Source: a virus
Lineage: Duplodnaviria > Heunggongvirae > Uroviricota > Caudoviricetes
Reading direction: 5' to 3' (one strand)
IMG/VR virus record: IMGVR_UViG_2778261223_000024
Coordinates: 1-11,692 of that record
DNA length: 11,692 nucleotides
Shown here: in pieces, positions 1 through 11,692 of the stretch
How positions within the stretch are numbered: position 1 is the stretch's first letter
Layout: the number at the start of each line of letters is the position of its first letter
Translations under genes and position numbers: made by a program
The notes under the pieces: generated by a model
The model's input: the letters and a program-made list of their open reading frames with translations, nothing else
Databases searched by the model: none
Told to the model about the DNA's origin: nothing

Positions 1-1362
1 ATGTTTAAACCGGAACTCCTTTCCCCGGCGGGAACGCTGAAAAATATGCGTTACGCTTTCGCTTATGGCGCAGATGCTGTTTATGCGGGCCAGCCGCGTT
101 ACTCCCTGCGTGTGCGCAACAACGAATTCAACCACGAAAATCTTCAGCTCGGCATTAATGAAGCCCATGCGCTGGGGAAAAAGTTTTATGTCGTGGTCAA
201 CATTGCACCGCACAACGCCAAGCTGAAAACCTTTATCCGTGACCTGAAACCGGTGGTGGAAATGGGGCCGGATGCGCTGATTATGTCTGATCCAGGGCTG
301 ATTATGCTGGTGCGTGAGCACTTCCCTGAAATGCCGATCCACCTCTCGGTGCAGGCTAACGCCGTGAACTGGGCGACGGTGAAATTCTGGCAGCAAATGG
401 GACTGACCCGCGTGATCCTCTCTCGCGAGCTGTCGCTGGAAGAGATTGAAGAGATTCGTAATCAGGTGCCGGATATGGAGATCGAGATCTTCGTTCACGG
501 CGCGCTGTGCATGGCCTACTCCGGTCGCTGCCTGCTCTCTGGCTATATCAACAAGCGCGACCCGAACCAGGGCACCTGCACCAACGCCTGCCGCTGGGAG
601 TACAACGTCCAGGAAGGGAAAGAAGATGACGTTGGCAACATCGTACACAAGTACGAGCCGATTCCGGTGCAAAATGTTGAGCCGACGCTGGGTATCGGCG
701 CACCAACTGACAAAGTGTTTATGATCGAAGAAGCCCAGCGTCCGGGCGAGTATATGACCGCGTTTGAAGATGAGCACGGCACTTACATCATGAACTCGAA
801 AGATCTGCGCGCCATCGCCCATGTAGAACGCCTGACCAAAATGGGCGTGCATTCGCTGAAAATCGAAGGCCGTACCAAATCTTTCTACTATTGCGCACGC
901 ACCGCACAGGTTTATCGTAAAGCTATCGATGATGCCGCTGCGGGCAAACCGTTCGATACCAGCCTGCTGGAAACGCTGGAAGGTCTGGCGCATCGTGGCT
1001 ATACCGAAGGTTTCCTGCGTCGTCATACTCACGACGATTATCAGAACTACGAATACGGTTATTCAGTTTCTGACCGCCAGCAGTTTGTTGGTGAGTTTAC
1101 CGGTGAGCGCAAGGGCGACCTCGCGGCGGTAGCGGTGAAAAATAAATTCTCCGTTGGCGACAGCCTTGAGCTGATGACGCCGCAAGGCAACATTAACTTT
1201 ACCCTTGAGCACATGGAAAACGCCAAAGGTGAAGCTATGCCGGTCGCACCAGGCGATGGTTATACTGTGTGGCTCCCGGTCCCGCAGGATCTTGAGCTAA
1301 ATTACGCGCTCCTGATGCGTAATTTCTCCGGGGAAACCACGCGTAACCCCCACGGTAAGTGA
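1..1362 (+). CDS. yegQ: U32-family peptidase-like protein YegQ/TrhP (tRNA U34 hydroxylation), complete 453 aa
   Basis: ATG at 1..3, stop TGA at 1360..1362, uninterrupted 453-codon frame. The protein reads as the E. coli YegQ/TrhP U32-family protein (recall, not searched), and it sits directly upstream of cyaR as in E. coli K-12. Confidence 0.9.
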   Translation: MFKPELLSPAGTLKNMRYAFAYGADAVYAGQPRYSLRVRNNEFNHENLQLGINEAHALGKKFYVVVNIAPHNAKLKTFIRDLKPVVEMGPDALIMSDPGLIMLVREHFPEMPIHLSVQANAVNWATVKFWQQMGLTRVILSRELSLEEIEEIRNQVPDMEIEIFVHGALCMAYSGRCLLSGYINKRDPNQGTCTNACRWEYNVQEGKEDDVGNIVHKYEPIPVQNVEPTLGIGAPTDKVFMIEEAQRPGEYMTAFEDEHGTYIMNSKDLRAIAHVERLTKMGVHSLKIEGRTKSFYYCARTAQVYRKAIDDAAAGKPFDTSLLETLEGLAHRGYTEGFLRRHTHDDYQNYEYGYSVSDRQQFVGEFTGERKGDLAAVAVKNKFSVGDSLELMTPQGNINFTLEHMENAKGEAMPVAPGDGYTVWLPVPQDLELNYALLMRNFSGETTRNPHGK

Positions 1363-1393
1363 TTAATTTCGATTATTTTTCCCGGATGGAAAA

Positions 1394-1415
1394 TTCTTAG
1401 AAACCGATCACATAC
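1394..1415 (+). promoter_or_regulatory. Candidate CRP-cAMP site of the cyaR promoter
   Basis: TTAGA-N6-TCACA at 1397..1412 (one perfect half-site) centred about 42 bp upstream of the predicted CyaR 5' end, with a TATCAT -10-like hexamer at 1434..1439. CyaR is known to be CRP-activated. Confidence 0.4.
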
Positions 1416-1446
1416 AGCTGCATTTATTAAGGTTATCATCCGTTTC

Positions 1447-1533
1447 GCTGAAAAACATAACCCATAAAATGCTAGCTGTACCAGGAACCACCTCCTTAGC
1501 CTGTGTAATCTCCCTTACACGGGCTTATTTTTT
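1447..1533 (+). ncRNA. cyaR: CyaR (RyeE) Hfq-binding small RNA, about 87 nt
   Basis: The sequence GCTGAAAAACATAACCCATAAAATGCTAGCTGTACCAGGAACCACCTCCTTAGCC...CCCTTACACGGGCTTATTTTTT matches CyaR as I recall it. It contains the CCTCCT anti-Shine-Dalgarno motif and ends in a GC stem plus T-run terminator (about 1509..1533). Placement between yegQ and ogr is as in K-12. Confidence 0.85.
1507..1533. other. P2-type attachment-site core (prophage/host junction) overlapping the CyaR terminator
   Basis: The reverse complement of 1507..1533 is AAAAAATAAGCCCGTGTAAGGGAGATT, which matches the 27-bp P2 att core as I recall it. It sits where host DNA meets the ogr-proximal prophage end. Confidence 0.55.
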
Positions 1534-1596
1534 ACGTACAACAAATTGAAATAAAAGGATTTATTTCTGGTCACGTCCACACATTGACCACATCGA

Positions 1597-1633
1597 CAAA
1601 AAAAGCCCCTCGACTGAGGGGCTTCCTGTTTCT
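1597..1633 (-). terminator. Rho-independent terminator downstream of ogr (possibly bidirectional)
   Basis: Perfect 8-bp stem AGCCCCTC/GAGGGGCT (1604..1611 and 1616..1623) with loop GACT. On the minus strand it is followed by an 8-T run (the complement of the A-run at 1597..1604). It lies immediately 3' of the ogr stop. Confidence 0.6.
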
Positions 1634-1635
1634 AA

Positions 1636-1854
1636 TTACATCCACATAATTTGCTGCCCTGACGGCAACGGGTGCGGCCTTACGGCGTGGACTTCTCCCG
1701 GCTTCACGATGTATCGCTGTACCGACTCATAAGTGATGAACGTGGCGCTGCAATTCACGTTCTGACACTGGTGATAACGCTCTTTTGTCGTGTCAGTGAT
1801 ATAGCGACTTGTACGCGCATGTGCGGCATGCTGGCATAAAGGACAATGAAACAT
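1636..1854 (-). CDS. ogr: Ogr, zinc-finger late-gene transcription activator (72 aa)
   Basis: The internal ATG at 1854..1852 gives MFHCPLCQHAAHARTSRYITDTTKERYHQCQNVNCSATF..., a Cys4 zinc-finger protein matching P2 Ogr as recalled. There is a GAGGTG Shine-Dalgarno upstream. The 93-aa track ORF begins at an upstream TTG and is probably an over-extension. Confidence 0.9.
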   Translation of the reverse strand: MFHCPLCQHAAHARTSRYITDTTKERYHQCQNVNCSATFITYESVQRYIVKPGEVHAVRPHPLPSGQQIMWM

Positions 1855-1888
1855 CGCGAGCACCTCTTCCGGTTTTGTTGATGGTGCC

Positions 1889-1917
1889 ATTTTAGTTAAT
1901 TTACCCTTATAAAACAA
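1889..1917 (-). promoter_or_regulatory. Candidate sigma70 promoter for ogr
   Basis: On the minus strand, TTGTTT (-35, 1917..1912), a 17-nt spacer and TAAAAT (-10, 1894..1889), about 35 nt upstream of the ogr ATG. Read by eye only. Confidence 0.3.
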
Positions 1918-1935
1918 ACAGATAAAAACAAAGCA

Positions 1936-3099
1936 TCACTCATCATCTTCTGTTTCGTACTCCACATCAGAAAGCCTGACCTCAAGCTCTAAGGACGTCG
2001 TGAAGCCGCTATTATTCAGAAAATGTGTCACCTTAGTGATTGTCCAGTCCTGCTCGTCTATGACGCGCTTAAAGCCTGATACTTTGACCGGCGTTTCCGT
2101 GTAAATATCTGCCCGACCGGTAGCCAGACTGATGGAAAACTCCGCAACGCCCCGTTGCAGCTTATCCCACTTCGCCTGAGCGGCGCGCATGGCCTGCGCT
2201 TTCGTGGCATATACCGTGGTCAGGGCAAAAACGTTGTCAGCTTCACCGGCCATGTATTCACCTTCGCGCGCTTCCGGTACTTTTGGCGCTTTCTTCTGCG
2301 TGACTGGTTTCGCTTTCGGGTGCTCCAGTGCGCGCAGGTGTTTTTCTTTCTTTTTGCGTTTCAGTTTTACCTTCTGCTTTTGCGGCTTCGGGTCTTTGGT
2401 GTGAAGCCACTTTGCCGTTACGCCGGTATAGGCTCCACGGTCAGCAATCGCAAAATGGTGGCGGTCGCCGTCGCTGCGGGTTATGGTGACCTGCGGGATT
2501 TTTTTACCGCTGGCCGTCACCCCCTGCCCCGCTTTGAGAAACAACAGTTTTCCCATTTTTACCGAGACCTCACCGCCGTTGCGTTCTGCAAGACGGGTCA
2601 GGAATTTCGCATCAGACTCCTGCGACTGGTCGATGTGCGGGATTTTAATTCCGGCCAGTGACGGAGCGACACTGGCTTCCAGCCTGTTACGGGTGGCTAT
2701 CGCCTCAACAATCGCACCGAGCGTGGTGTCATGCCAGGAGCCTTCCCGGCGGGAATTGAGCGTCCCGCGAAAATCTGCACTCCGGGCGCGGATGGTGACC
2801 ACATCCGGTGCGCCCCGGTGTTCAACCTCATCAACGGTAAATTTCCCTTTGCATACCAGGGCAAAACCTTTCCAGCCGATATACACCGTCAGGACAGCGC
2901 CACGAACCGGCAGCCCGACCTGCCCGTCGGCATCGTTCAGTTCAATATCAAGCTGGTCAGCCTCAAAGCCCCGGTTATCCGTCAGGGTCATGCTCATCAG
3001 ACGGTCGCTGATATTGCCGGTAATATCCCTGCTGTCGAGCATCAGCATGTAATCCGGCGTCAGCGTACTGCCTGCATCAAATGTCAGCGCATCCAGCAT
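1936..3099 (-). CDS. D: Tail protein D (late control gene D / Phage_GPD family), 387 aa
   Basis: ATG at 3099..3097 overlaps the U stop (TAATG). Length and position are as in the P2 FETUD operon. It contains a Lys-rich linker. Confidence 0.9.
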   Translation of the reverse strand: MLDALTFDAGSTLTPDYMLMLDSRDITGNISDRLMSMTLTDNRGFEADQLDIELNDADGQVGLPVRGAVLTVYIGWKGFALVCKGKFTVDEVEHRGAPDVVTIRARSADFRGTLNSRREGSWHDTTLGAIVEAIATRNRLEASVAPSLAGIKIPHIDQSQESDAKFLTRLAERNGGEVSVKMGKLLFLKAGQGVTASGKKIPQVTITRSDGDRHHFAIADRGAYTGVTAKWLHTKDPKPQKQKVKLKRKKKEKHLRALEHPKAKPVTQKKAPKVPEAREGEYMAGEADNVFALTTVYATKAQAMRAAQAKWDKLQRGVAEFSISLATGRADIYTETPVKVSGFKRVIDEQDWTITKVTHFLNNSGFTTSLELEVRLSDVEYETEDDE

Positions 3100-3578
3100 T
3101 ATCCCGCCCCCGTCATACCCGTGAATCTGGTCGCCATACTGCCAGCCTTACCGATGAGCGATTCCGCCTGTTTACCGATATCGCCATAAAGCGCGGCCAG
3201 TGATTCATCAACGCGGGTGAGCGACAGCGTAAAATCAATTTTCCGGGGTGTGCCGTCTGCAAAGAAAATACTCCCTGTTTCACTCACTCTGCTGATGACA
3301 TACATGCCGTAAATCATGCCGGTGCCATCCAGCAACGGCCACGCCCGGCCTTCCTCTGCCATCAGCCTGAGCGTGGTCATCGTCAGCTTCCCGCCGGTCA
3401 GTTCGGGATAAAGCACGCCGGCAAGCGTCATGTTTTCCTCACCCACACCGAGAAACTGAAAGGCATCCCGTTTACCGATACGGGAATTTGACGGCCAGCG
3501 ATAATCTGATTCGCGCTGCATGGTCTGGTGTGGCAGTGTCTGGCGCATAAAAACAAACATACCTAACGCGAGCATCAT
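3099..3578 (-). CDS. U: Tail protein U, 159 aa
   Basis: ATG at 3578..3576 preceded by a strong AAGGAGG Shine-Dalgarno that lies inside the 3' end of T. Length and synteny match P2 gpU. Confidence 0.85.
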   Translation of the reverse strand: MMLALGMFVFMRQTLPHQTMQRESDYRWPSNSRIGKRDAFQFLGVGEENMTLAGVLYPELTGGKLTMTTLRLMAEEGRAWPLLDGTGMIYGMYVISRVSETGSIFFADGTPRKIDFTLSLTRVDESLAALYGDIGKQAESLIGKAGSMATRFTGMTGAG

Positions 3579-3592
3579 TTTTCGTCACCTCC

Positions 3593-6040
3593 TTAACCGT
3601 CATGCATCATGCTGGCACGGGCGCGCGCACGTTTATCCCGCTCGTATTTTTCGAGCGCATCCTGTAACTGGCGGTCGAGCTGAGTCCCCGGCGCAGTACC
3701 GCCCGTCAGGCTGATGTGATATTCGTTTTTACTCTGGTCCACATAAGAGCGGCCAGCCGGTGCCGTGACCGGCTGATAAGCCTGATAGCCTGCATAAGAG
3801 CTGGTCGCCGGAATATAACCACCGGTGCCATACGTGGCGGCATTAGTCCTTGCGGCGGTCTGGTCAAGTGTGTCTGACTCTTTGTTGATAACACCGAGTT
3901 TTTCCAGTACCCAGTCAATACCACTGCGCAGTTTGTTGAACGCATTAAGCGGCAGCATCAACGCGTCAGCCAGTGCCTGCCCGAACATGACGCCCGTGTC
4001 ACGGCAACGGTTCAGGGTGTCCTGTGTGGCTTTAACCGGGGCAATCAGGTTTTTAAACCACTGCCACGCGGCCTGTAACTTTTCGCCCAGCCAGTCAAAC
4101 ACCGGCTTAAGTGGCGTGAACAGTTCCCCCACCGGCGCAAATGCCGCTTTCAGCCCTTCAACCACACCGCCGAAGAATGCGCTGACAGGCTCCCAGTATT
4201 TACGGATAAGCAACGCCCCGGCGACAATGGCGGCCACCACGGCCACAACCGGCCAGCTAATCGCACCGATGGCCGTCATAACAGCACTGCCAACCGTCGT
4301 GAAGATTGCCCCCATTGCGCCTGCTGCCGCGATAATAGCATTGATGCCGGTGATAACCGGCCAGGCTACGAGGCCAATGGCACCAATGATGCCAGTCAGC
4401 GCCAGTGCACCACCGGCAATAATGCCGATGGTTGACGCCAGTGATTTGTTTTTCTGGATCCAGCCGTCGAGTTTTAACACATACATTGTGGCCGTCTGCG
4501 TGAGCTTACGCAGTGCGCCTTCCTGCTGGTCAAACAGGTCAGTCCCCACCGCCTCATAAGCGGACTGAAACTCCTTAAAGTCACCGCCGAGATTGTCCTG
4601 CATGATATTTACCAGCTCTGCGGTCTTCCCGTCTGAGACTTTAAACGCAGCGGTCAGTTTGTCCAGCTTTCCGGTTGAGGCGGCAGTCATCAGCACAGCG
4701 GCGGATGAGCTGGCCTCCTCCCCGAAAATGGTTTTCATGTATTCAGCCTGCTGGGCAGTACCGAGCCGGTTTTTCTCAAAACTGGCCTGCATTTCTTTCA
4801 GAATGGTAAATACTGGTCGGGTATTCCCCTTAGTGTCTGAGGTTTTCACGCCAAGCTCTTTGAGTGCATCCCATGCTTTTCCCGTCGGTGCCTGCAGGCG
4901 ACTTAACACGGCACGGCTTCCCGTCCCCGCCATTGAGCCTGTGATTTTTGCATCATGCAGCGCCCCGACCATTGCGGCGGTTTCTTCAATGCTGACACCG
5001 GCATTTTTTGCCACAGGTGCGGCATAGGTCAGCGCATCGCTCATGCCGTCAAAATCGGCGGCAGTTTTGTTCATCGTCATGGAGAGAACATCCCCGATAT
5101 GAGCGACCTTATCGTTTGAAAGCTGAAAGGCGGATTTCATCCCCATCAGCAGGGCGGCGTTTTCTTCCATCGTGCGGCGGTTCGCCAGCGCCATATTCAG
5201 CGTGACCGGCGTTGCCGCCTGAATGGCATCAACATCCCCACCGGCTTTCGCAATGATAATCTGTGCACCGGCTGCATCATCCGCCGAGGCGGCAGTATTG
5301 TCACCGAGCTGGCGCGCCTGCTTGCGGAGTGCGGCCATTTCGGCGGAGTCTTTTGCCACACCGAGCACGGCCTGCAATTCTGAGTTTTTCTGCGCAAACT
5401 CATAACCGGGCATCAGTATCTTAACACCGGCCATCGTTCCCGCCGCCGCAATCCCCACTCCGGCAGCGCCTACTGAGGCCATATTTCCGGCCAGTTCCTT
5501 TCCTGCCTGATAACGCTGTTTGACTGCGTTAAGTTTTGCCTGTTGTGCACTGACACGCGCCAGTGCATCGCGCTGACGGTTAAGTTGTGCGGTGGTTTCA
5601 CTGATACGGTTTTTCAGCCCCTGCTCATCATGTGCAAGATTGCGGGTATTAATTCCCACAGCGGCCAGTTCCCGCTGCTGGCGTTTAACAGAATCCGTCA
5701 GGCGGTTATATTTCGCCTGTAAGTCCTCCGCCGCACGCTTTGCGGATTCCAGCACTTTCGCCTGAGCACGGGTTGGACGTTCGGTATTTTTAAACTGTGT
5801 GGCAAGGGCTTCGGCCTCCTGCCGTGCCTTTTCAAGTGCATGACCAGTCACGGCGAGCTGTGCACTGGTCTTGCGGAATCCCTCAATACGGGATGCGTGA
5901 CCGTTCAGCTCGCGCAGTGATTTTTGTGTTTCCCGGATATCCCCCGACAGCGACTTACTCGCTGTACGGATGGATTTAAACGGGCGGGATGCCTGGTCAA
6001 CAGCCCTGAGCAATACCTGTAATTTTACATTGTTACTCAT
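3593..6040 (-). CDS. T: Tail tape-measure protein T, 815 aa
   Basis: Long Ala/Gln-rich coiled-coil N-terminal half and Gly/Ala/Ile-rich hydrophobic segments, typical of tape-measure proteins. The 815-aa length is that of P2 gpT. The start ATG at 6040..6038 overlaps the E' stop. Confidence 0.9.
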   Translation of the reverse strand: MSNNVKLQVLLRAVDQASRPFKSIRTASKSLSGDIRETQKSLRELNGHASRIEGFRKTSAQLAVTGHALEKARQEAEALATQFKNTERPTRAQAKVLESAKRAAEDLQAKYNRLTDSVKRQQRELAAVGINTRNLAHDEQGLKNRISETTAQLNRQRDALARVSAQQAKLNAVKQRYQAGKELAGNMASVGAAGVGIAAAGTMAGVKILMPGYEFAQKNSELQAVLGVAKDSAEMAALRKQARQLGDNTAASADDAAGAQIIIAKAGGDVDAIQAATPVTLNMALANRRTMEENAALLMGMKSAFQLSNDKVAHIGDVLSMTMNKTAADFDGMSDALTYAAPVAKNAGVSIEETAAMVGALHDAKITGSMAGTGSRAVLSRLQAPTGKAWDALKELGVKTSDTKGNTRPVFTILKEMQASFEKNRLGTAQQAEYMKTIFGEEASSSAAVLMTAASTGKLDKLTAAFKVSDGKTAELVNIMQDNLGGDFKEFQSAYEAVGTDLFDQQEGALRKLTQTATMYVLKLDGWIQKNKSLASTIGIIAGGALALTGIIGAIGLVAWPVITGINAIIAAAGAMGAIFTTVGSAVMTAIGAISWPVVAVVAAIVAGALLIRKYWEPVSAFFGGVVEGLKAAFAPVGELFTPLKPVFDWLGEKLQAAWQWFKNLIAPVKATQDTLNRCRDTGVMFGQALADALMLPLNAFNKLRSGIDWVLEKLGVINKESDTLDQTAARTNAATYGTGGYIPATSSYAGYQAYQPVTAPAGRSYVDQSKNEYHISLTGGTAPGTQLDRQLQDALEKYERDKRARARASMMHDG

Positions 6041-6460
6041 TCGTGTTTCCGCTTCGCCGGAGCGCCTTTTCGCGCCATGTGATGAGTTCGGTCAGGCTCA
6101 TGGGATACAGTTCTGATGGCGGCCAGTGAAATATCACTGCCACATCCGCCATCAGGTCATCGACCGACAGATTTTTCGGAAACGTCACTGCACCGAGTTC
6201 GGCGACAAAAAACCGACCACCTTACCGGCCAGCGCCACAAGGTCAGGCAGTTCCAGCGCGGCGACTTCCTGCTCGGTCAGCATCGGTGCCGTCATGCGCG
6301 GCAGCACCTTAATCAGTGCATCGACTTCAGAGTTCGCGACCGCAGCCAGACTGACACCGCGCAGCGTCCCGGCACTGGGTTTCATCAGCGTGACCTGTTC
6401 GATGACCTGCTCACCACGCTTGACCGGATTGTCCAGGGTAATCACATTTTCTTTGTTCAT
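6033..6460 (-). CDS. E': E+E' tail assembly chaperone made by programmed -1 frameshift (predicted 142 aa)
   Basis: Slippery heptamer T_TTT_TTG (minus strand, 6212..6206) in E frame GGT-TTT-TTG. After the -1 shift the frame stays open for 57 codons (VAELGAVTFPKNL...RRSGNTNE) and stops at TAA 6035..6033, overlapping the T start (ATGAGTAA). The predicted 142-aa total matches P2 E+E' as recalled. Confidence 0.7.
6185..6460 (-). CDS. E: Tail assembly chaperone E, 91 aa (zero-frame product)
   Basis: ATG at 6460..6458, stop TGA at 6187..6185. The protein ends ...GKVVGFLSPNSVQ and carries the slippery site near its 3' end. Confidence 0.85.
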   Translation of the reverse strand: MNKENVITLDNPVKRGEQVIEQVTLMKPSAGTLRGVSLAAVANSEVDALIKVLPRMTAPMLTEQEVAALELPDLVALAGKVVGFLSPNSVQ

Positions 6461-6489
6461 GGTTTTCTCACTTCTTAATCGGGGGTTAA

Positions 6490-6510
6490 CCGGTCAGCCT
6501 GGCTGACCGG
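6490..6510 (-). other. Intercistronic perfect palindrome / RNA hairpin between FII and E
   Basis: CCGGTCAG-CCTGG-CTGACCGG (8-bp stem, extendable to a 10-bp near-perfect palindrome) between the FII stop at 6518 and the E start at 6460. No T-run follows on the transcribed strand, so it is not a classic intrinsic terminator. Confidence 0.5.
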
Positions 6511-6517
6511 ATGAAAA

Positions 6518-7036
6518 TCACAGGCCGATATTGCGGCGGTGTTGCTCCAGCCGGTCGACGCCGTTCACCTTCTCAATCATGTTGATGGTGTCGATTTCGA
6601 CCAGCTCCTTACCGTCCATCGTCAGCCGGAAATAGGTGCAGACCACGGAGATTTTCGACTCGGTGTCTTCTCCCTGTTTACCCTCGCCGGTGTCGATTTC
6701 TTTCTGACGTCCACGCATGACCACTTCGACGGCCACCGTTTCGCCGGTATCGTCGCGCTGGTAAGAGCCTGCAAAACGAATCGGCACGGCATCCACACCG
6801 GTTGAGGCGTAAAGCTCCCAGATAACCGAATCCGGGAAGCCACCGAGCGACCACTCCATTGACAGCGCATCGTCATCAAGGCCGAGGTCTACCGGTGCGC
6901 TGCCGTTCATCCCCGCACCGCGATAGTTTTCGAGCTTACGGGTCAGTTTTGGCAGCGTGACGGACTTTGCAACGCCCTGATAGCTGTAGCCGTTCAGAAA
7001 GACGTTCATTAACTTGAGTTTGCGCGGCATTGCCAT
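6518..7036 (-). CDS. FII: Tail tube protein FII, 172 aa
   Basis: ATG at 7036..7034 with a GGAG Shine-Dalgarno in the 12-nt gap after the FI stop. Length and position match P2 gpFII. Confidence 0.9.
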   Translation of the reverse strand: MAMPRKLKLMNVFLNGYSYQGVAKSVTLPKLTRKLENYRGAGMNGSAPVDLGLDDDALSMEWSLGGFPDSVIWELYASTGVDAVPIRFAGSYQRDDTGETVAVEVVMRGRQKEIDTGEGKQGEDTESKISVVCTYFRLTMDGKELVEIDTINMIEKVNGVDRLEQHRRNIGL

Positions 7037-7048
7037 CGGTCAGGCTCC

Positions 7049-8239
7049 TTAATTGCTGTTAACCGAGGTGACCAGATTTGCCAGGTATTTATCGGTAATA
7101 CGCTGGCGCAGGGTCAGGTTTTCAAGAGGAGGCACCGGAGTATAGTCGTAGTCGATATACAGTTTTCCGGCCTTGAGGGTTTCCGCATCGTTGGATTCTT
7201 CGCTGAACCAGCAGGTCGCATCCACGATATAGCCGTTTGTTTTCAGCTCACGGAATTTGGCATTGATGCCGTCAACGATGTCGCGAATCAGCGTTGCGGT
7301 GATGGGCTTGTCCACCGCCCACATGTGCGCCTCAGCCATCGTGTCGGCCAGCACCTGCGCGGTGCGGGTGTAGTTTTCAAAGAGGAACAGCGGGTCATCA
7401 GAGCAGGTACGGTTACCCCAGAAGCGGAAACCGTCGCGGCGAATCAGCGTAGTGACGCCTGACTCATTAAGCAGGTCAGCATCGGTGCCGGACTCCTGCA
7501 AATCCCAGAATACAGAGGCGCTGATGCCGGTAACACCGTTCACCCCAACGTTGGACAGTGTTTTATGCCAACCCTGCTCCTGGTCGATTTTAGCGCGCAG
7601 ACCCAGCGCACGGGCGGTGGCATACGCGGTGGCGGTGGTACTGGTGACCGTATCCCATGCGAGGAAATCCGGCCAGATGACCATCAACTCACGCTGGCTG
7701 AAATTCTGGCGGTAGGCTTTCACCTCGGAAATGGTCTTACAGCCCCATGCGCTGATATATCCGAAAGCACGCAGCTTCTGACAGACGGATGCCAGTGCAA
7801 CAGCCACCTCTTTGGTATCCAGTCCCGGCACACCGAGAATACGCGGTTTAACACCGGTTACCGACTCCGCCGCCAGCAGGGCTTTCAGTCCGGTGTACTG
7901 ACCGTTTTCGTCGGTGGTGCCGATGATATTGGAAACGGTCTGCGCGAGTTTCGTTTCCTCGTCGTCGCCGGTGCCGTCTTCCACACGCACGACAACGGTG
8001 ACCGGTTTTGACTGGTCGGCGATGGCCTGCAACGATGCCGCCAGCGTGCCTTTTTTACCGGCCTTTGCAATTGCGCTCTGCACATTGGTAATCAGCACCG
8101 GTTTATTGAGGGGGAAGGTTTCCGCATCCGCATCGCTGGCCGTGCAGACCATGCCGACAATGGCCGTGGATACGGTGGAAATGACGCGGGTGCCGTCGTT
8201 AATCTCCAGCACCTGCACGCCGTGATGATAGTCACTCAT
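7049..8239 (-). CDS. FI: Contractile tail sheath protein FI, 396 aa
   Basis: ATG at 8239..8237 with a GGAG Shine-Dalgarno about 8 nt upstream. The 396-aa length and the position as first gene of the F-E-T-U-D operon match P2 gpFI. Confidence 0.9.
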   Translation of the reverse strand: MSDYHHGVQVLEINDGTRVISTVSTAIVGMVCTASDADAETFPLNKPVLITNVQSAIAKAGKKGTLAASLQAIADQSKPVTVVVRVEDGTGDDEETKLAQTVSNIIGTTDENGQYTGLKALLAAESVTGVKPRILGVPGLDTKEVAVALASVCQKLRAFGYISAWGCKTISEVKAYRQNFSQRELMVIWPDFLAWDTVTSTTATAYATARALGLRAKIDQEQGWHKTLSNVGVNGVTGISASVFWDLQESGTDADLLNESGVTTLIRRDGFRFWGNRTCSDDPLFLFENYTRTAQVLADTMAEAHMWAVDKPITATLIRDIVDGINAKFRELKTNGYIVDATCWFSEESNDAETLKAGKLYIDYDYTPVPPLENLTLRQRITDKYLANLVTSVNSN

Positions 8240-8333
8240 CCGTTTAACTCCGTGGTTAATGGGTGCAACTATTTTCCGTTGGGTAGTACATGAGACGCTA
8301 TTTGACCTGGCTGGTCAGTGGATGAAACAACAG
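8240..8333 (-). promoter_or_regulatory. Region expected to hold the Ogr-dependent late promoter (PF-like) for the tail operon
   Basis: About 95-bp leader upstream of FI and downstream of a terminator. It contains the dyad TGACC-N5-GGTCA and an imperfect TGT-N12-CCA element. P2 late promoters are reported to carry a TGT-N12-ACA dyad near -55. The exact site is not resolved by eye. Confidence 0.3.
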
Positions 8334-8363
8334 ATAAAGAAAAGGCGGGCAATCTGCCCGCCT
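8334..8363 (-). terminator. Rho-independent terminator after the 230-aa cargo gene
   Basis: Minus-strand stem AGGCGGGC/GCCCGCCT with loop AGATT followed by TTTTCTTTAT. It separates the cargo transcript from the FI late promoter region. Confidence 0.55.
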
Positions 8364-8498
8364 GTCCTGATTTGTACACACTCATTTTCCGACTGACAAT
8401 TTACATAGCCAAAACGCTATCAAATCTGACAGCCTGTTTTGAGCGAAGAGGAACCTGAGATTGTGGTATGCTAATTTATGGGGAGCAGGTCAATTGTA

Positions 8499-9191
8499 TT
8501 AGTTATCTTTTGGCCTTTCTTTATCCCATTTCTTTACAGTGGTCTGATACCACTCTTCACGTGCTCGTTGTTCCTCTGCTCTGTCACTTGAATTATAGTT
8601 GTCTGTTTTAATTTTTTTGCTTCCCTGGGAAATCGGCCTCCAGTCTTCTCTAATCTTTTTCATCTGCTCAGCTATCTGTGTCATTGGACTCCTTGCACCT
8701 AAGTAGCTAACCCCCTCGAAAGAAGCCATATCATAAGAATACTCATTCCGCTCTCTTTCAGTTGAGCCCGGCTGTTTAGACCAGCTAATACTAACAGAAT
8801 AAACTTGATCTTTAATCTGGTCATACTTACAAAGACTGCTGTTGAGGGAATGGCCGTTTTTCAATACGCTAACCTTGCTAAATGGTATACCTTTATTTTT
8901 TCTATGTTCTGCATTAACCAGTGGGGGATTAAATTCGACTTCAATATCATAGGCTGGGGCATTTCCGGTATTAGCAATATTGATATCAAAATAAAAAGCA
9001 GCCCAAGAATTTGGTTCAAGAGTCACAACGACATGAGGTTGAACTGATGCGTCAACCATCCTTTTTGTCTCGTCTGCTAATAGCCTTGTTACTCTCCACA
9101 AGAAAAATGTAGCAACTGCTGTTAGCAATGCTGCCAAAGCGGAGATAAGTGTACTTACTGTGTTTATATGCTCTGCGATAAATTCGATCAT
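8499..9191 (-). CDS. Hypothetical membrane-anchored protein, 230 aa (cargo gene 1); family not recognised
   Basis: ATG at 9191..9189 with an AAGGA Shine-Dalgarno 6 nt upstream. One hydrophobic helix at residues about 12..33 (TVSTLISALAALLTAVATFFLW), then a roughly 150-aa soluble domain and a highly charged K/E/R-rich C-terminal tail. AT-rich codon usage unlike the adjacent tail genes. Confidence 0.75.
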   Translation of the reverse strand: MIEFIAEHINTVSTLISALAALLTAVATFFLWRVTRLLADETKRMVDASVQPHVVVTLEPNSWAAFYFDINIANTGNAPAYDIEVEFNPPLVNAEHRKNKGIPFSKVSVLKNGHSLNSSLCKYDQIKDQVYSVSISWSKQPGSTERERNEYSYDMASFEGVSYLGARSPMTQIAEQMKKIREDWRPISQGSKKIKTDNYNSSDRAEEQRAREEWYQTTVKKWDKERPKDN

Positions 9192-9612
9192 GAGTTGTCC
9201 TTGGGGGCGTACTAATTGTTTTCAATACTAAAATAGCGCCGGGCTTGAAAAATTGCACACTTATGGTTCGATTTACCTCAACAGTTAAGGCTTCTACTTC
9301 CCCCATGCACCTCACCCAGCCCAAGACTGTATGAGGTCTGACAAAGAACTTCCTGACACTTGAAAACGAGGCAACGGCTAGGGTTTCTCGTAGGGCAAGG
9401 ATTGAATACGAAGCCTGTATATTGCTCCGCAAACGCTGCTGAGGGCAGTTTAAATGTTGGGCGTTTATGTAGCCTTTCACTCACCAGCATGAGTTCAATG
9501 TCTGTGAGTTACCGACAACAATATAAAGGGGGTGGCATCATCATATATCCAAGCTAGAGTCAAATCCTCTAACTGGTTTTATGATCAGTGTCAATTGTTT
9601 GATTATTGAACG

Positions 9613-9641
9613 TTTACGAAGCAGCACGGGAGCCATATAAC
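9613..9641 (+). promoter_or_regulatory. Candidate sigma70 promoter of the two-gene cargo operon
   Basis: TTTACG (-35, 9613..9618), 17-nt spacer, TATAAC (-10, 9636..9641). The predicted start near 9648 leaves a roughly 35-nt leader before the 9683 ATG. Confidence 0.45.
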
Positions 9642-9682
9642 TAATGGGCAGGTATAAGCCTGTATCACGAGGAATCAGTATA

Positions 9683-9862
9683 ATGGCTGATGATAAGACC
9701 AAAATCGGTACCCCTGACAATGATTTAATAAGTATCAAACAGGATTACGAGAGACGTGATTGGGCTGAAAAGTTTGGAGTTAGCGAGGCCAAACTTGTTC
9801 AAGCCGTACAGGCTGTAGGTCATTCGGCTAAGAAAGTACAGGCATGGCTTAAAGACCATTAA
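9683..9862 (+). CDS. DUF3606-like small protein, 59 aa (cargo gene 2)
   Basis: MADDKTKIGTPDNDLISIKQDYERRDWAEKFGVSEAKLVQAVQAVGHSAKKVQAWLKDH resembles the short DUF3606 family as I recall it (N-terminal MxDDKxK and a YExRxWxxKFG core); unverified. GAGGA Shine-Dalgarno 9 nt upstream. An alternative in-frame ATG at 9644 (72 aa) would lie upstream of the predicted transcription start. Confidence 0.7.
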   Translation: MADDKTKIGTPDNDLISIKQDYERRDWAEKFGVSEAKLVQAVQAVGHSAKKVQAWLKDH

Positions 9863-9868
9863 TATATG

Positions 9869-9893
9869 AGCGCCTTTCTAGGCGCTTTTTTCT
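9869..9893 (+). terminator. Intra-operon rho-independent terminator / attenuator
   Basis: Stem AGCGCC/GGCGCT (9869..9874 and 9881..9886) with loop TTTCTA followed by TTTTTTC, lying between the two cargo genes. Confidence 0.55.
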
Positions 9894-9914
9894 TTGTCCT
9901 TTGGGAGATGATTT

Positions 9915-10193
9915 ATGGCTAATAATTTATTTATTACTTACGACCTCATTAAAACGAAAGATTATGCGGCTGTGTATGATGCAATTAAATCTTTAGGAAA
10001 TTGGGCTTTAACAACTGAATCGAACTGGTATGTTAACTGTAGTTACTCTGCCGAGGATGCAGCCAAAATTGTGAGGGCGGTCATGGATAGTGATGATAAG
10101 CTTATTGTTGTAGACGCAACCAATAACTCAGCTTATTGGTACAATCTCTCAGATGAAGTTAGTAACCAAATTCTGACTGAGTGGAACAAGTAA
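9915..10193 (+). CDS. Hypothetical small protein, 92 aa (cargo gene 3); family not recognised
   Basis: ATG at 9915 with a GGGAGA Shine-Dalgarno 6-7 nt upstream, stop TAA at 10191..10193. The residue pattern suggests alternating strands and helices (LFITYDL / YAAVYDAIKSLG / WYVNCSY / AAKIVRAVM / KLIVVDA / AYWYNL), reminiscent of small ferredoxin-like folds; this is inference from primary sequence only. Confidence 0.7.
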   Translation: MANNLFITYDLIKTKDYAAVYDAIKSLGNWALTTESNWYVNCSYSAEDAAKIVRAVMDSDDKLIVVDATNNSAYWYNLSDEVSNQILTEWNK

Positions 10194-10195
10194 TT

Positions 10196-10220
10196 AAAGG
10201 GGGTGGGTAGCCCCCTTTAA
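10196..10220. terminator. Bidirectional terminator hairpin closing the cargo operon and the G transcript
   Basis: Perfect 8-bp stem AAAGGGGG/CCCCCTTT with a 7-nt loop, flanked by A/T-rich sequence on both sides. It sits where the plus-strand cargo operon and the minus-strand G transcript converge. Confidence 0.5.
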
Positions 10221-10396
10221 TTCAGAAACTATCATTACTGGGTTAATTCTTTCATCTTTGCTCCCTTGCTATATGTCCTGAAAGCGTCCTTTTTAGCCTT
10301 CTGCTCAGTATGTCCGGTAATGGCACAGAGCGGACTGCCAGATTAGGCTTTACTCTGTGCCATAGATATGTAATCTCACACCAGAGCTTATACAAC

Positions 10397-10924
10397 TTAT
10401 TGCGGCATTTCCGGCCATTCAGGATTTGCAGGATCCACACGACTGACCAAAACGCTGTAGCGTTCCCAAGCCTCCAGCCGTGTGCGCTCCTCCTCTGTTG
10501 CCATATTCAGCCTGACAGCGCGCTCCAGCGGCAAAATCACGGATTCAGCATCTGCAAGAAGTCTGGCTTTCCGAATTTCTGCCTGCTGTTGTAATTCCTC
10601 TGCCGTATAAATGCGTTTAATCACTTTGCCGTCCTTAAACATCCAGTTCCCTGAAATGTCCGCCCGTCGGTTAGCAGTAATATCCGGCACTTCAACAACA
10701 CTTAATCCATCCGGTCTGATAGCTGTCACATCCTTTTCTACATAGCGGATAATATTATCTTTGTCGTACGCTATTTTTATCGTGTCATCAGCAAAATACT
10801 TTTGTTCTTCGTACCAGTTCTTACCATCTTCTGTAAAAAACCAGACAACATCAAAGTCCTTTGTCAATTGATATTGTTCAACCGTTTTTGGATTACCTGC
10901 CGTTATATTTATCAAATGCTGCAT
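10397..10924 (-). CDS. G: Tail fibre assembly protein G, 175 aa
   Basis: ATG at 10924..10922 three nt after the H stop. The C-terminal ...[38 protein letters not shown] is typical of P2-type tail-fibre assembly chaperones, and the length matches P2 gpG. Confidence 0.85.
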
Positions 10925-10927
10925 AAA

Positions 10928-11692
10928 TTATACCTGCGCCACGTTGTACCATGTCCCGTTAATGTATTTCTGAACCGGTCTGTAATATACGCCACCAATG
11001 TTATCGGCAGAGTTTGAGCCGGTATCCTGAACAATAATGCCGGAATATACACACCCGGACGGTGCCTGATGTGTCCATGTCATGCCATTGTTCGCAGGTT
11101 TGTATGTGGCAGCACCACCAAGCCGGATATCCCGGACATAGCGTGAATCAAAATTACTATAGTTAGATGGTGATACCTGCCCGTTAACAGCAAAAGTGAT
11201 GCTGTTATCTGTATTTCTCTGACTGTAAAAATGCCAGCCTGCATCATCACCTAATTCAGCCACCACCGGACGACTTGCGTTTCCCCACAAATTGAATGCG
11301 GCTTCCTTCGTGGATGTATTGCTGCTGCTGACCGTGAACTTTTTCCCGCTACCGGCACGTACTTTGGTACTTGAGGCAATATCACCAGTAACACTCAGGC
11401 CATGCCCCATTGACACTCCGCCATTAGCGTTATTGATAGTCAGCGGCCTTAAACCGTTCCATGTCCCAAATTTATCACCAGAGGCCGTCAGCATTAAATA
11501 TGTGCTGCCACCATCATTCCTGATAAAGAATCCATAATTGCCATAAGCAATGCGCAGACCATTAGCACTGAGTAGACTGGCCCCCTGAATCTCCAGACAA
11601 CCAGTATCACTTAAATAAGTGATAGTCTTAATACTAGTTTTTAGACTAGTCATTGGAGAACAGATGATTGATGTCTTAGGGCCGGAGAAACG
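10928..11692 (-). CDS. H: Tail fibre protein H, C-terminal part (5' end lies beyond the window)
   Basis: Stop TAA at 10930..10928. The frame is open to the window edge (no stop in the 13 codons upstream of the first in-frame Met), so the gene is truncated by the window. Gly/Ser/Asn/Thr-rich beta-type composition, typical of receptor-binding fibre tips. Confidence 0.8.
   Translation of the reverse strand, partial: RFSGPKTSIICSPMTSLKTSIKTITYLSDTGCLEIQGASLLSANGLRIAYGNYGFFIRNDGGSTYLMLTASGDKFGTWNGLRPLTINNANGGVSMGHGLSVTGDIASSTKVRAGSGKKFTVSSSNTSTKEAAFNLWGNASRPVVAELGDDAGWHFYSQRNTDNSITFAVNGQVSPSNYSNFDSRYVRDIRLGGAATYKPANNGMTWTHQAPSGCVYSGIIVQDTGSNSADNIGGVYYRPVQKYINGTWYNVAQV

Follow-up and report, generated by a model that had tools for sequence, protein, structure and literature searches.

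The gene analysed here, at 8499..9191 on the minus strand, lies in an 11,692-nucleotide (nt) stretch of DNA (the window) that makes up positions 1 to 11,692 of the IMG/VR virus record IMGVR_UViG_2778261223_000024 and is the right end of a P2-like (Peduovirus) Escherichia coli prophage. It encodes a 230-amino-acid (aa) protein of the DUF8453 family, predicted to be a bitopic membrane protein, and is stand-alone cargo, acquired horizontally and placed in the variable slot between the prophage genes G and FI (the Z/fun slot). An anti-phage role of one kind or another is rather probable for this protein, and we tentatively propose that it acts as a membrane-anchored protein of the abortive-infection type. 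We do not regard it as a discovery, since catalogues already list the protein and it has been flagged as a defence candidate before.

The window adjoins a U32-peptidase gene of the host, and the order on its minus strand is ogr, D, U, the tape-measure gene T, E/E', the tube gene FII, the sheath gene FI, a 2.1-kb cargo, the tail-fibre assembly gene G and the end of the tail-fibre gene H. Slots were assigned from Pfam matches of the flanking genes, RefSeq annotation and the P2 reference map. The 230-aa gene is located between G and FI, which is the place of fun(Z) in P2. According to the P2 record, fun(Z) in the G-FI gap is a non-essential lysogenic-conversion gene that stops the growth of T5 when cloned, and the literature on P2 cargo hotspots counts the G-FI slot among them, with a mixed and often defensive content. 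The G+C content of the cargo (39–44%) is low versus that of the tail genes (55–59%), and for the 230-aa gene itself it is about 40%. A query consisting of the cargo and its flanks matches 1,029 E. coli genomes, 99 of which have the whole cargo, and the isolated, viable phage R18C carries it as well. The 230-aa gene is thus accessory rather than structural. A confident homology to a housekeeping or virion-associated protein, which the first-pass annotation of this DNA had named as a finding that would refute its reading, was not found: the gene is accessory cargo and neither virion nor housekeeping.

That the open reading frame (ORF) is a genuine gene, and not one that is open by chance, follows from a full-length match in PHROG, many homologues, an identical coding sequence in RefSeq and a ratio of nonsynonymous to synonymous substitution rates (dN/dS) of 0.12. 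This last value was obtained against the Kosakonia orthologue at dS 0.41; across comparisons the range was 0.12–0.23, which indicates that the gene is under purifying selection. The coding sequence of 693 nt starts with ATG, and the translation ends with ...EEQRAREEWYQTTVKKWDKERPKDN. From the letters alone, the first-pass annotation had described a good ribosome-binding site, a terminator belonging to the gene, divergence from a small-gene operon, a single N-terminal hydrophobic helix and a charged C-terminal tail, and this description agrees well with what we found. A Shine-Dalgarno sequence, AAGGA, was read at 9198..9202 on the minus strand with a spacing of 6 nt to the ATG, and a ribosome-binding site is annotated at the equivalent site in GenBank AJ512682. 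The terminator scan returned an intrinsic-terminator-like hairpin at 8363..8343 on the same strand (inverted repeat I1), with a G+C-rich 9-bp stem containing seven G-C pairs and a T-run in its tail (TTTCTTTATC). This hairpin is located 136 nt past the stop of the 230-aa gene and just ahead of the upstream region of the sheath gene FI. The small-gene operon is on the plus strand, with a gap of 452 bp between it and the 230-aa gene. The hydrophobic helix spans residues 12–32 (Kyte-Doolittle hydropathy 2.05), with no second segment detected by hydropathy, and residues 191–230 hold 11 K/R and 9 D/E. AJ512682 has a single annotated -10 box, which corresponds to about 9520–9525 of the window (TATATT); starting from there, the 230-aa gene would have an untranslated leader of about 330 nt. 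Rfam families were absent from region 8200–10500, and hence from the gap at 9192–9643, with the exception of one sub-threshold hairpin match.

The first-pass annotation had left the family of the protein unassigned. A family can in fact be named, even if it is uncharacterised: phrog_11802 (PHROG 11802) matches residues 1–230 of 230 with an E-value of 1.9e-145, and there is no difference from WP_042002648.1 of RefSeq, to which one record gives the name "DUF8453 domain-containing protein". The 230-aa protein shows 98.3% identity to ORF1 of the Z region of P2-EC53 (GenBank AJ512682, "putative lysogenic conversion protein") and 98.7% identity to the phage R18C protein. P2-EC53 ORF1, the R18C protein and WP_042002648.1 are effectively the same protein in the same G-FI position; they are catalogue entries only, and nothing structural differs between them. 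Nothing was found in full-text literature on DUF8453, P2-EC53 or the accession numbers, and the 230-aa gene is not in the lists of the Vassallo 2022 supplements. Homologues are numerous, with 233 in a collection clustered at 90% identity and at least 1,682 clusters at 50% identity (E ≤ 1e-3). The best 150 cluster representatives are mostly 180–250 aa long and match in a single stretch, without extra domains. Members with 44–50% identity are present in Xanthomonas, Pseudomonas, Bordetella, Caulobacter, Sphingomonas, Rhizobium and others. The hosts thus span alpha-, beta- and gamma-proteobacteria, and the family reaches Bacillus phages, as the SPbeta-like ones have a homologue with two membrane helices (hhalign probability 98%). 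This two-helix homologue is carried by Goe12 (vB_BsuS-Goe12, locus L021, 2327–3010) and by Goe13, showing that DUF8453 crosses from Proteobacteria to phages of Bacillota; in Goe12 the gene for the arbitrium receptor, aimR, lies about 1.5 kb downstream of it.

AlphaFold2, run with the family alignment, gave a model with a mean predicted local distance difference test (pLDDT) score of 84.5. It comprises a long helix (residues 2–49), a seven-stranded beta-sandwich (54–154) and two further helices (169–188 and 201–225). Together with hydropathy, the model is in line with the architecture of helix, soluble domain and charged tail that had been read from the sequence at first pass. The single transmembrane (TM) helix corresponds to codons 12–32 (9096..9158, minus strand, as for the following features) and lies within helix 2–49, modelled at pLDDT 91–97. 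It is followed by a basic juxtamembrane stalk, RVTRLLADETKRM..., at codons 33–49 (9045..9095), by the immunoglobulin (Ig)-like sandwich, predicted to be cytoplasmic, at codons 54–154 (8730..9032), and by the two C-terminal helices at codons 169–225 (8517..8687). Conservation was read from an alignment of 31 diverse homologues, which share the N-terminal helix, the sandwich motifs and a C-terminal helix. The most conserved part of the protein is T24–W32, the cytoplasm-proximal half of the TM helix, in which A25, A27, T28 and L31 are invariant and T24, W32 and the adjacent R33 nearly so. In the stalk, V34, T35, L38, A39, E41 and T42 are invariant, so that the inner half of the TM helix and the stalk form the top-conserved stretch, TAVATFFLWRVT..LA.ETKRM. 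Such conservation points to a role of this helix beyond anchoring. The sandwich has the conserved motifs PN.W, NTGNA.A and FDPPL and the residue W137. The first of the C-terminal helices is conserved (KKIREDW, with K178, E182 and W184 near-invariant), and the second forms the variable, highly charged tail.

Following the positive-inside rule, the orientation is predicted to be N-out/C-in, because four K/R are present within 12 residues after the TM helix versus none before it; the soluble part would then be cytoplasmic. The Bacillus phage homologue, with a basic N-terminus and two helices, is consistent with the same orientation. Of the checks listed by the first-pass annotation, the TM and structure predictions gave one TM helix and a modelled domain, and no structural match was specific. 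Foldseek against the PDB returned nothing at E ≤ 1e-3, the best hits being an archaeal pilin, TRAP subunits and Kir channels, each of them a "helix plus Ig-like sandwich", and a structure search of BFVD returned only uncharacterised phage membrane proteins. The modelled sandwich appears generic, with no specific resemblance to any known protein. Kir/KirBac channels and archaeal type IV pilins are only fold neighbours with scores in the generic Ig-like range; the 230-aa protein has neither the Kir selectivity filter or second helix nor a prepilin signal, and no sequence similarity to them, so that we consider this likeness an analogy and not a homology.

In other genomes the DUF8453 gene has no constant company. 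The seven loci that were inspected differed in their settings: the gene adjoins tyrosine integrases in Xanthomonas and Klebsiella, a serine recombinase in another locus, a Mob_Pre/Prim-Pol element in Erythrobacter and a TIR protein gene in Rhizobium, and it is an isolated insert in a sphingomonad. When flanking ORFs were clustered for 72 loci from 72 species, DUF8453 was recovered in 69 loci and any other family in at most six. Among the nearest flanking proteins, no Pfam family occurred in more than 2 of 130. Neighbours in other taxa are integrases, recombinases and mobilisation genes, and sometimes genes for TIR, AbiJ-NTD4, methylase, GajB-like or mads proteins; the defence-type minority of flanking proteins comprises methylases, GajB-like helicases, mads and DRT genes. 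The DUF8453 protein has no conserved partner gene and, in this sense, acts alone. An upstream ORF was considered as a partner and rejected: the upstream 70-aa ORF shares a similarity of 11 residues with an upstream ORF in Klebsiella (KLPSAAFAEQY versus KSPQAAFAEGY), and blastn and tblastx of the upstream regions of seven loci found nothing. A holin reading was also set aside, as the window contains, besides ogr, only tail genes with no lysis genes nearby, and the family is present in non-phage elements too.

A link with defence is predicted by machine learning. In the DefensePredictor study (Science 2026, PMC13092281, Tables S5 and S10), exactly this protein, from an E. coli strain of the 69-strain panel, is listed as a "Predicted novel defense gene". 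Its mean log-odds score is 6.99 (range 3.49–8.64) for a threshold of 4 in that paper, and a member of its cluster scores 8.24 in the 3,000-genome set (PMC13092281). The 118 transcription units cloned and assayed in that study do not include the gene (Table S6, PMC13092281), and its status there is that of a prediction. Among the predicted units, 42 of 94 protected (PMC13092281). The first-pass annotation had put forward a role in defence or exclusion. With the P2 Z/fun cargo slot, the low G+C content and the DefensePredictor score, such a role stands as the best-supported guess; any choice between abortive infection, exclusion and a function outside defence is a matter of inference.

The defence-prone slot, the machine-learning score, the conservation of the TM segment and the precedents of PdpSau and AbiP lead us to suggest, tentatively, a stand-alone anti-phage protein of the abortive-infection type. 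The lysogen would make the 230-aa protein, which would work alone. Recognition of a phage product near the inner membrane would fall to its C-terminal helices and its cytoplasmic Ig-like domain. Self-association of the conserved TM/juxtamembrane helix would follow, which would impair the membrane or the proton-motive force and stop the infection. It is conceivable, if somewhat doubtful, that DUF8453 as a whole is a family of single-gene immune proteins in which the Ig-like domain is the sensor and the TM helix is itself the effector, forming a membrane-permeabilising oligomer. If true, such a combination of Ig-like sensor and TM-helix effector would be new to described defence systems.

Several points weigh against the abortive-infection proposal. 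Most neighbours of the family in other genomes are ordinary or mobile-element genes and not defence genes. More than half of the DefensePredictor predictions gave no protection when assayed (PMC13092281). The 5,027 PADLOC models (PADLOC-DB 2.0) contain no family matching the 230-aa protein at E ≤ 1, and at E ≤ 10 none matched this protein, the Bacillus phage homologue or five distant members. Sequence searches of PDB, of NCBIfam and of a local Pfam copy that is without a DUF8453 model gave no match either. A simple scan of the 452-bp upstream region at 9192–9643 found no sigma-70-like promoter, which makes expression of the gene in the lysogen uncertain. Finally, topology and oligomerisation are predictions or proposals, and a single helix rich in small residues is by itself no evidence of pore formation.

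The precedents mentioned above are informative as to how such a protein could work. Both PdpSau and AbiP have been established experimentally as abortive-infection proteins, and prophages or plasmids encode them. PdpSau, encoded by an accessory gene of Staphylococcus aureus prophages, has 278 aa; a membrane helix at its N-terminus precedes a charged C-terminal part in the cytoplasm, and it acts alone (PMC10127798). Upon infection it leads to loss of membrane polarity and abortive infection (PMC10127798). As a single-gene prophage accessory of similar size and layout, it may serve as a model for what the 230-aa protein works like. The two differ in host phylum, in prophage slot and in the soluble domain, for which an OB-fold-like domain with an AbiP-like structure is reported in PdpSau, versus the modelled Ig-like sandwich here. 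The lactococcal proteins AbiP and AbiC (AbiC/P group) are anchored in the membrane, AbiP by one helix and AbiC by two, and have an extramembrane domain of about 200 aa (PMC13064643). The activity of AbiP needs both the anchor and the soluble domain, and AbiP binds nucleic acids through a domain that is described as OB-like (PMC13064643). The anchors of AbiP and AbiC have a parallel in DUF8453, where the E. coli member has one helix and the Bacillus phage member two. These likenesses to AbiP (UniProt A2RIX6), AbiC and PdpSau are drawn from published descriptions and appear to be architectural only; as the soluble domains are OB-like in AbiP and PdpSau and Ig-like in our model, we do not file the 230-aa protein with them. 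A tblastn search of 72,556 plasmids with the 230-aa protein and the Bacillus phage homologue found three records (two from Pseudomonas and one from Bacillus) and none from Lactococcus. P2 Fun(Z) occupies the same slot as our protein, is non-essential and is annotated as lysogenic conversion in the P2 record, but it has 528 aa and is encoded on the strand opposite to the tail genes, unlike the 230-aa protein. A homology with Fun(Z) was rejected (best BLASTP E-value 1.6).

An accessory function outside defence is only slightly less probable than the abortive-infection proposal. Acting on the host membrane, the protein could serve lysogenic conversion or maintenance of the element, for example in an envelope or stress-physiology role, as a modulator of a host membrane complex or as an addiction-type toxin. 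"Putative lysogenic conversion protein" is the sole name under which it was deposited, an Ig-like fold is a general protein-interaction module, and both the mostly ordinary or mobile-element neighbourhood in other taxa and the lack of similarity to known defence proteins in PADLOC are consistent with such a function. On the other hand, the DefensePredictor score is high, P2 hotspots are described as rich in defence cargo, and members of the family are repeatedly found beside integrases at island edges and beside TIR or AbiJ-type genes.

Superinfection exclusion at the inner membrane, by which genome delivery would be blocked without killing, for instance via the tape-measure/ejection channel or a conserved inner-membrane factor, seems unlikely. 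Known superinfection exclusion (Sie) proteins, among them P22 SieA, T4 Imm and HK97 gp15, are small, membrane-located and encoded by phages or prophages. The 230-aa protein likewise has its gene in a prophage, in a lysogenic-conversion slot, and is predicted to be a bitopic protein of the inner membrane; its conserved membrane-embedded and juxtamembrane segment could be the binding face for a conserved membrane partner. The predicted place of most of the protein is however the cytoplasm, at a distance from the steps of injection in the periplasm, and a family with 44–50% identity across three classes of proteobacteria that reaches Bacillus phages is ill-suited to a host- or phage-specific entry factor. 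Homology to Sie proteins was not found, with no Sie sequences having been compared directly.

The divergent operon next to the 230-aa gene is by contrast a validated defence unit. Its first gene, on the plus strand at 9644/9683–9862, encodes a DUF3606 protein (WP_001406733.1), and it is followed on the same strand at 9915–10193 by the gene for a 92-aa protein (WP_000002748.1; PHROG 1090), which has a sub-threshold Cas2-like match. In the DefensePredictor study this pair, with the working name RMRT, protected E. coli MG1655 and was named DS-46 (PMC13092281); it was the only protecting unit among 24 low-scoring control units (PMC13092281). The DS-46 clone comprised the coding sequences at 62985–63495 with 200 bp upstream and 100 bp downstream (PMC13092281). 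The 230-aa gene, at 61801–62493 of the same contig, is outside this clone. As the clone cannot contain the 230-aa gene and yet protected, the 230-aa protein is not a required effector of DS-46, and the label of candidate effector given at first pass is not supported in so far as it referred to the neighbouring operon.

That the 230-aa protein would nevertheless be a membrane effector or accessory part of one three-gene system with the DUF3606 and 92-aa proteins is very unlikely. The arrangement is divergent and the two units co-travel in E. coli (104 genomes with the 230-aa gene, 102 with the DS-46 operon), but this co-occurrence is explained by one 2-kb cassette inherited at 99–100% identity. 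In 87 loci from other genomes, the pair adjoins the DUF8453 gene only in the same P2 cassette, in Pantoea, and the clustering of flanking ORFs at 72 loci described above gave no neighbour family common to more than six of them. A distant 92-aa homologue directly upstream of a DUF8453 member in Pseudomonas machongensis is in favour of a joint system; DS-46 protecting by itself is against it. We consider it more likely that the cassette holds two independent units. In the P. machongensis locus (L055), the 92-aa homologue (29% identity, jackhmmer E-value 3e-36 after iteration) is at 5526–5945 and the DUF8453 member at about 5977–6699 on the same strand, with an insertion sequence (IS) element and an ATPase-like ORF of 909 aa beyond them. 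It is the sole independent co-occurrence in the 87 loci, and there may be a functional link between the DUF8453 and 92-aa families.

Least probable of all is a silent or decaying passenger without current function in this prophage: a promoter-like site was not found upstream, a copy in the leuX island of about 460 E. coli genomes is without its 5' end beside IS elements and the Pantoea copy stops early at 200 aa, but here the frame is intact and 99–100% conserved in about 100 E. coli genomes and R18C, dN/dS is 0.12–0.23, and a good ribosome-binding site and a terminator are present. The leuX copy is a second member of the family in E. coli, located at the tRNA-Leu island (for example L018 6908–7480 in TB4019), with about 75% nucleotide and 71% amino-acid identity. 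It has no membrane helix, its annotated start being at or near the equivalent of M45, with IS-element genes just upstream of this start and a gene for an "AbiJ-NTD4 domain-containing protein" on the other side; it looks like a decayed remnant. In Pantoea leporis (L023 6001–6603), the same P2-type cassette including the DS-46 genes is present, and a premature stop shortens the 230-aa gene product.

If the 230-aa gene protects alone, as in the abortive-infection proposal, a widespread family would join the short list of single-gene membrane-anchored phage-resistance proteins, with a compact and easily dissected architecture of 230 aa, one helix and one Ig-like domain. The 2-kb P2 cassette would then have two independent defence units back to back, one of them the validated DS-46. 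If it gives no protection, the gene would stand as a documented false positive, useful for the prediction of defence genes from their context, and the conservation of the TM segment would still need explaining.

Further observations concern the prophage itself. The prophage-host junction is within 1–1917 of the window: the U32-family peptidase gene (1–1362, plus strand) ends at 1362 and the gene for the late activator ogr (1636–1917, minus strand) begins its interval at 1636, so that the attachment-site junction should fall in 1363–1635. The flanking inverted repeats annotated in AJ512682 were missed by the repeat finder; a forced alignment gave scattered short matches, in which they are weakly visible. 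At 10550–11000, where G has its 5' part and the tail-fibre gene H its 3' end, the G+C content dips to 37–41%. This dip suggests an exchanged module made up of the receptor-binding tip and its chaperone, such as has been reported for this hotspot. A hairpin at 10196–10217 on the minus strand, to which the sub-threshold Rfam match corresponds on both strands, is located between the stop of the 92-aa gene (10193) and that of G (10397). It probably terminates the late V-J-H-G operon, in agreement with the annotation of the corresponding site in P2, and could also end the DS-46 operon. In E. coli TUM1223 (L001 1–802), the tape-measure gene is annotated as a pseudogene with an internal stop while the cargo is intact and 99.9% identical; the cargo is thus retained in a probably defective prophage.

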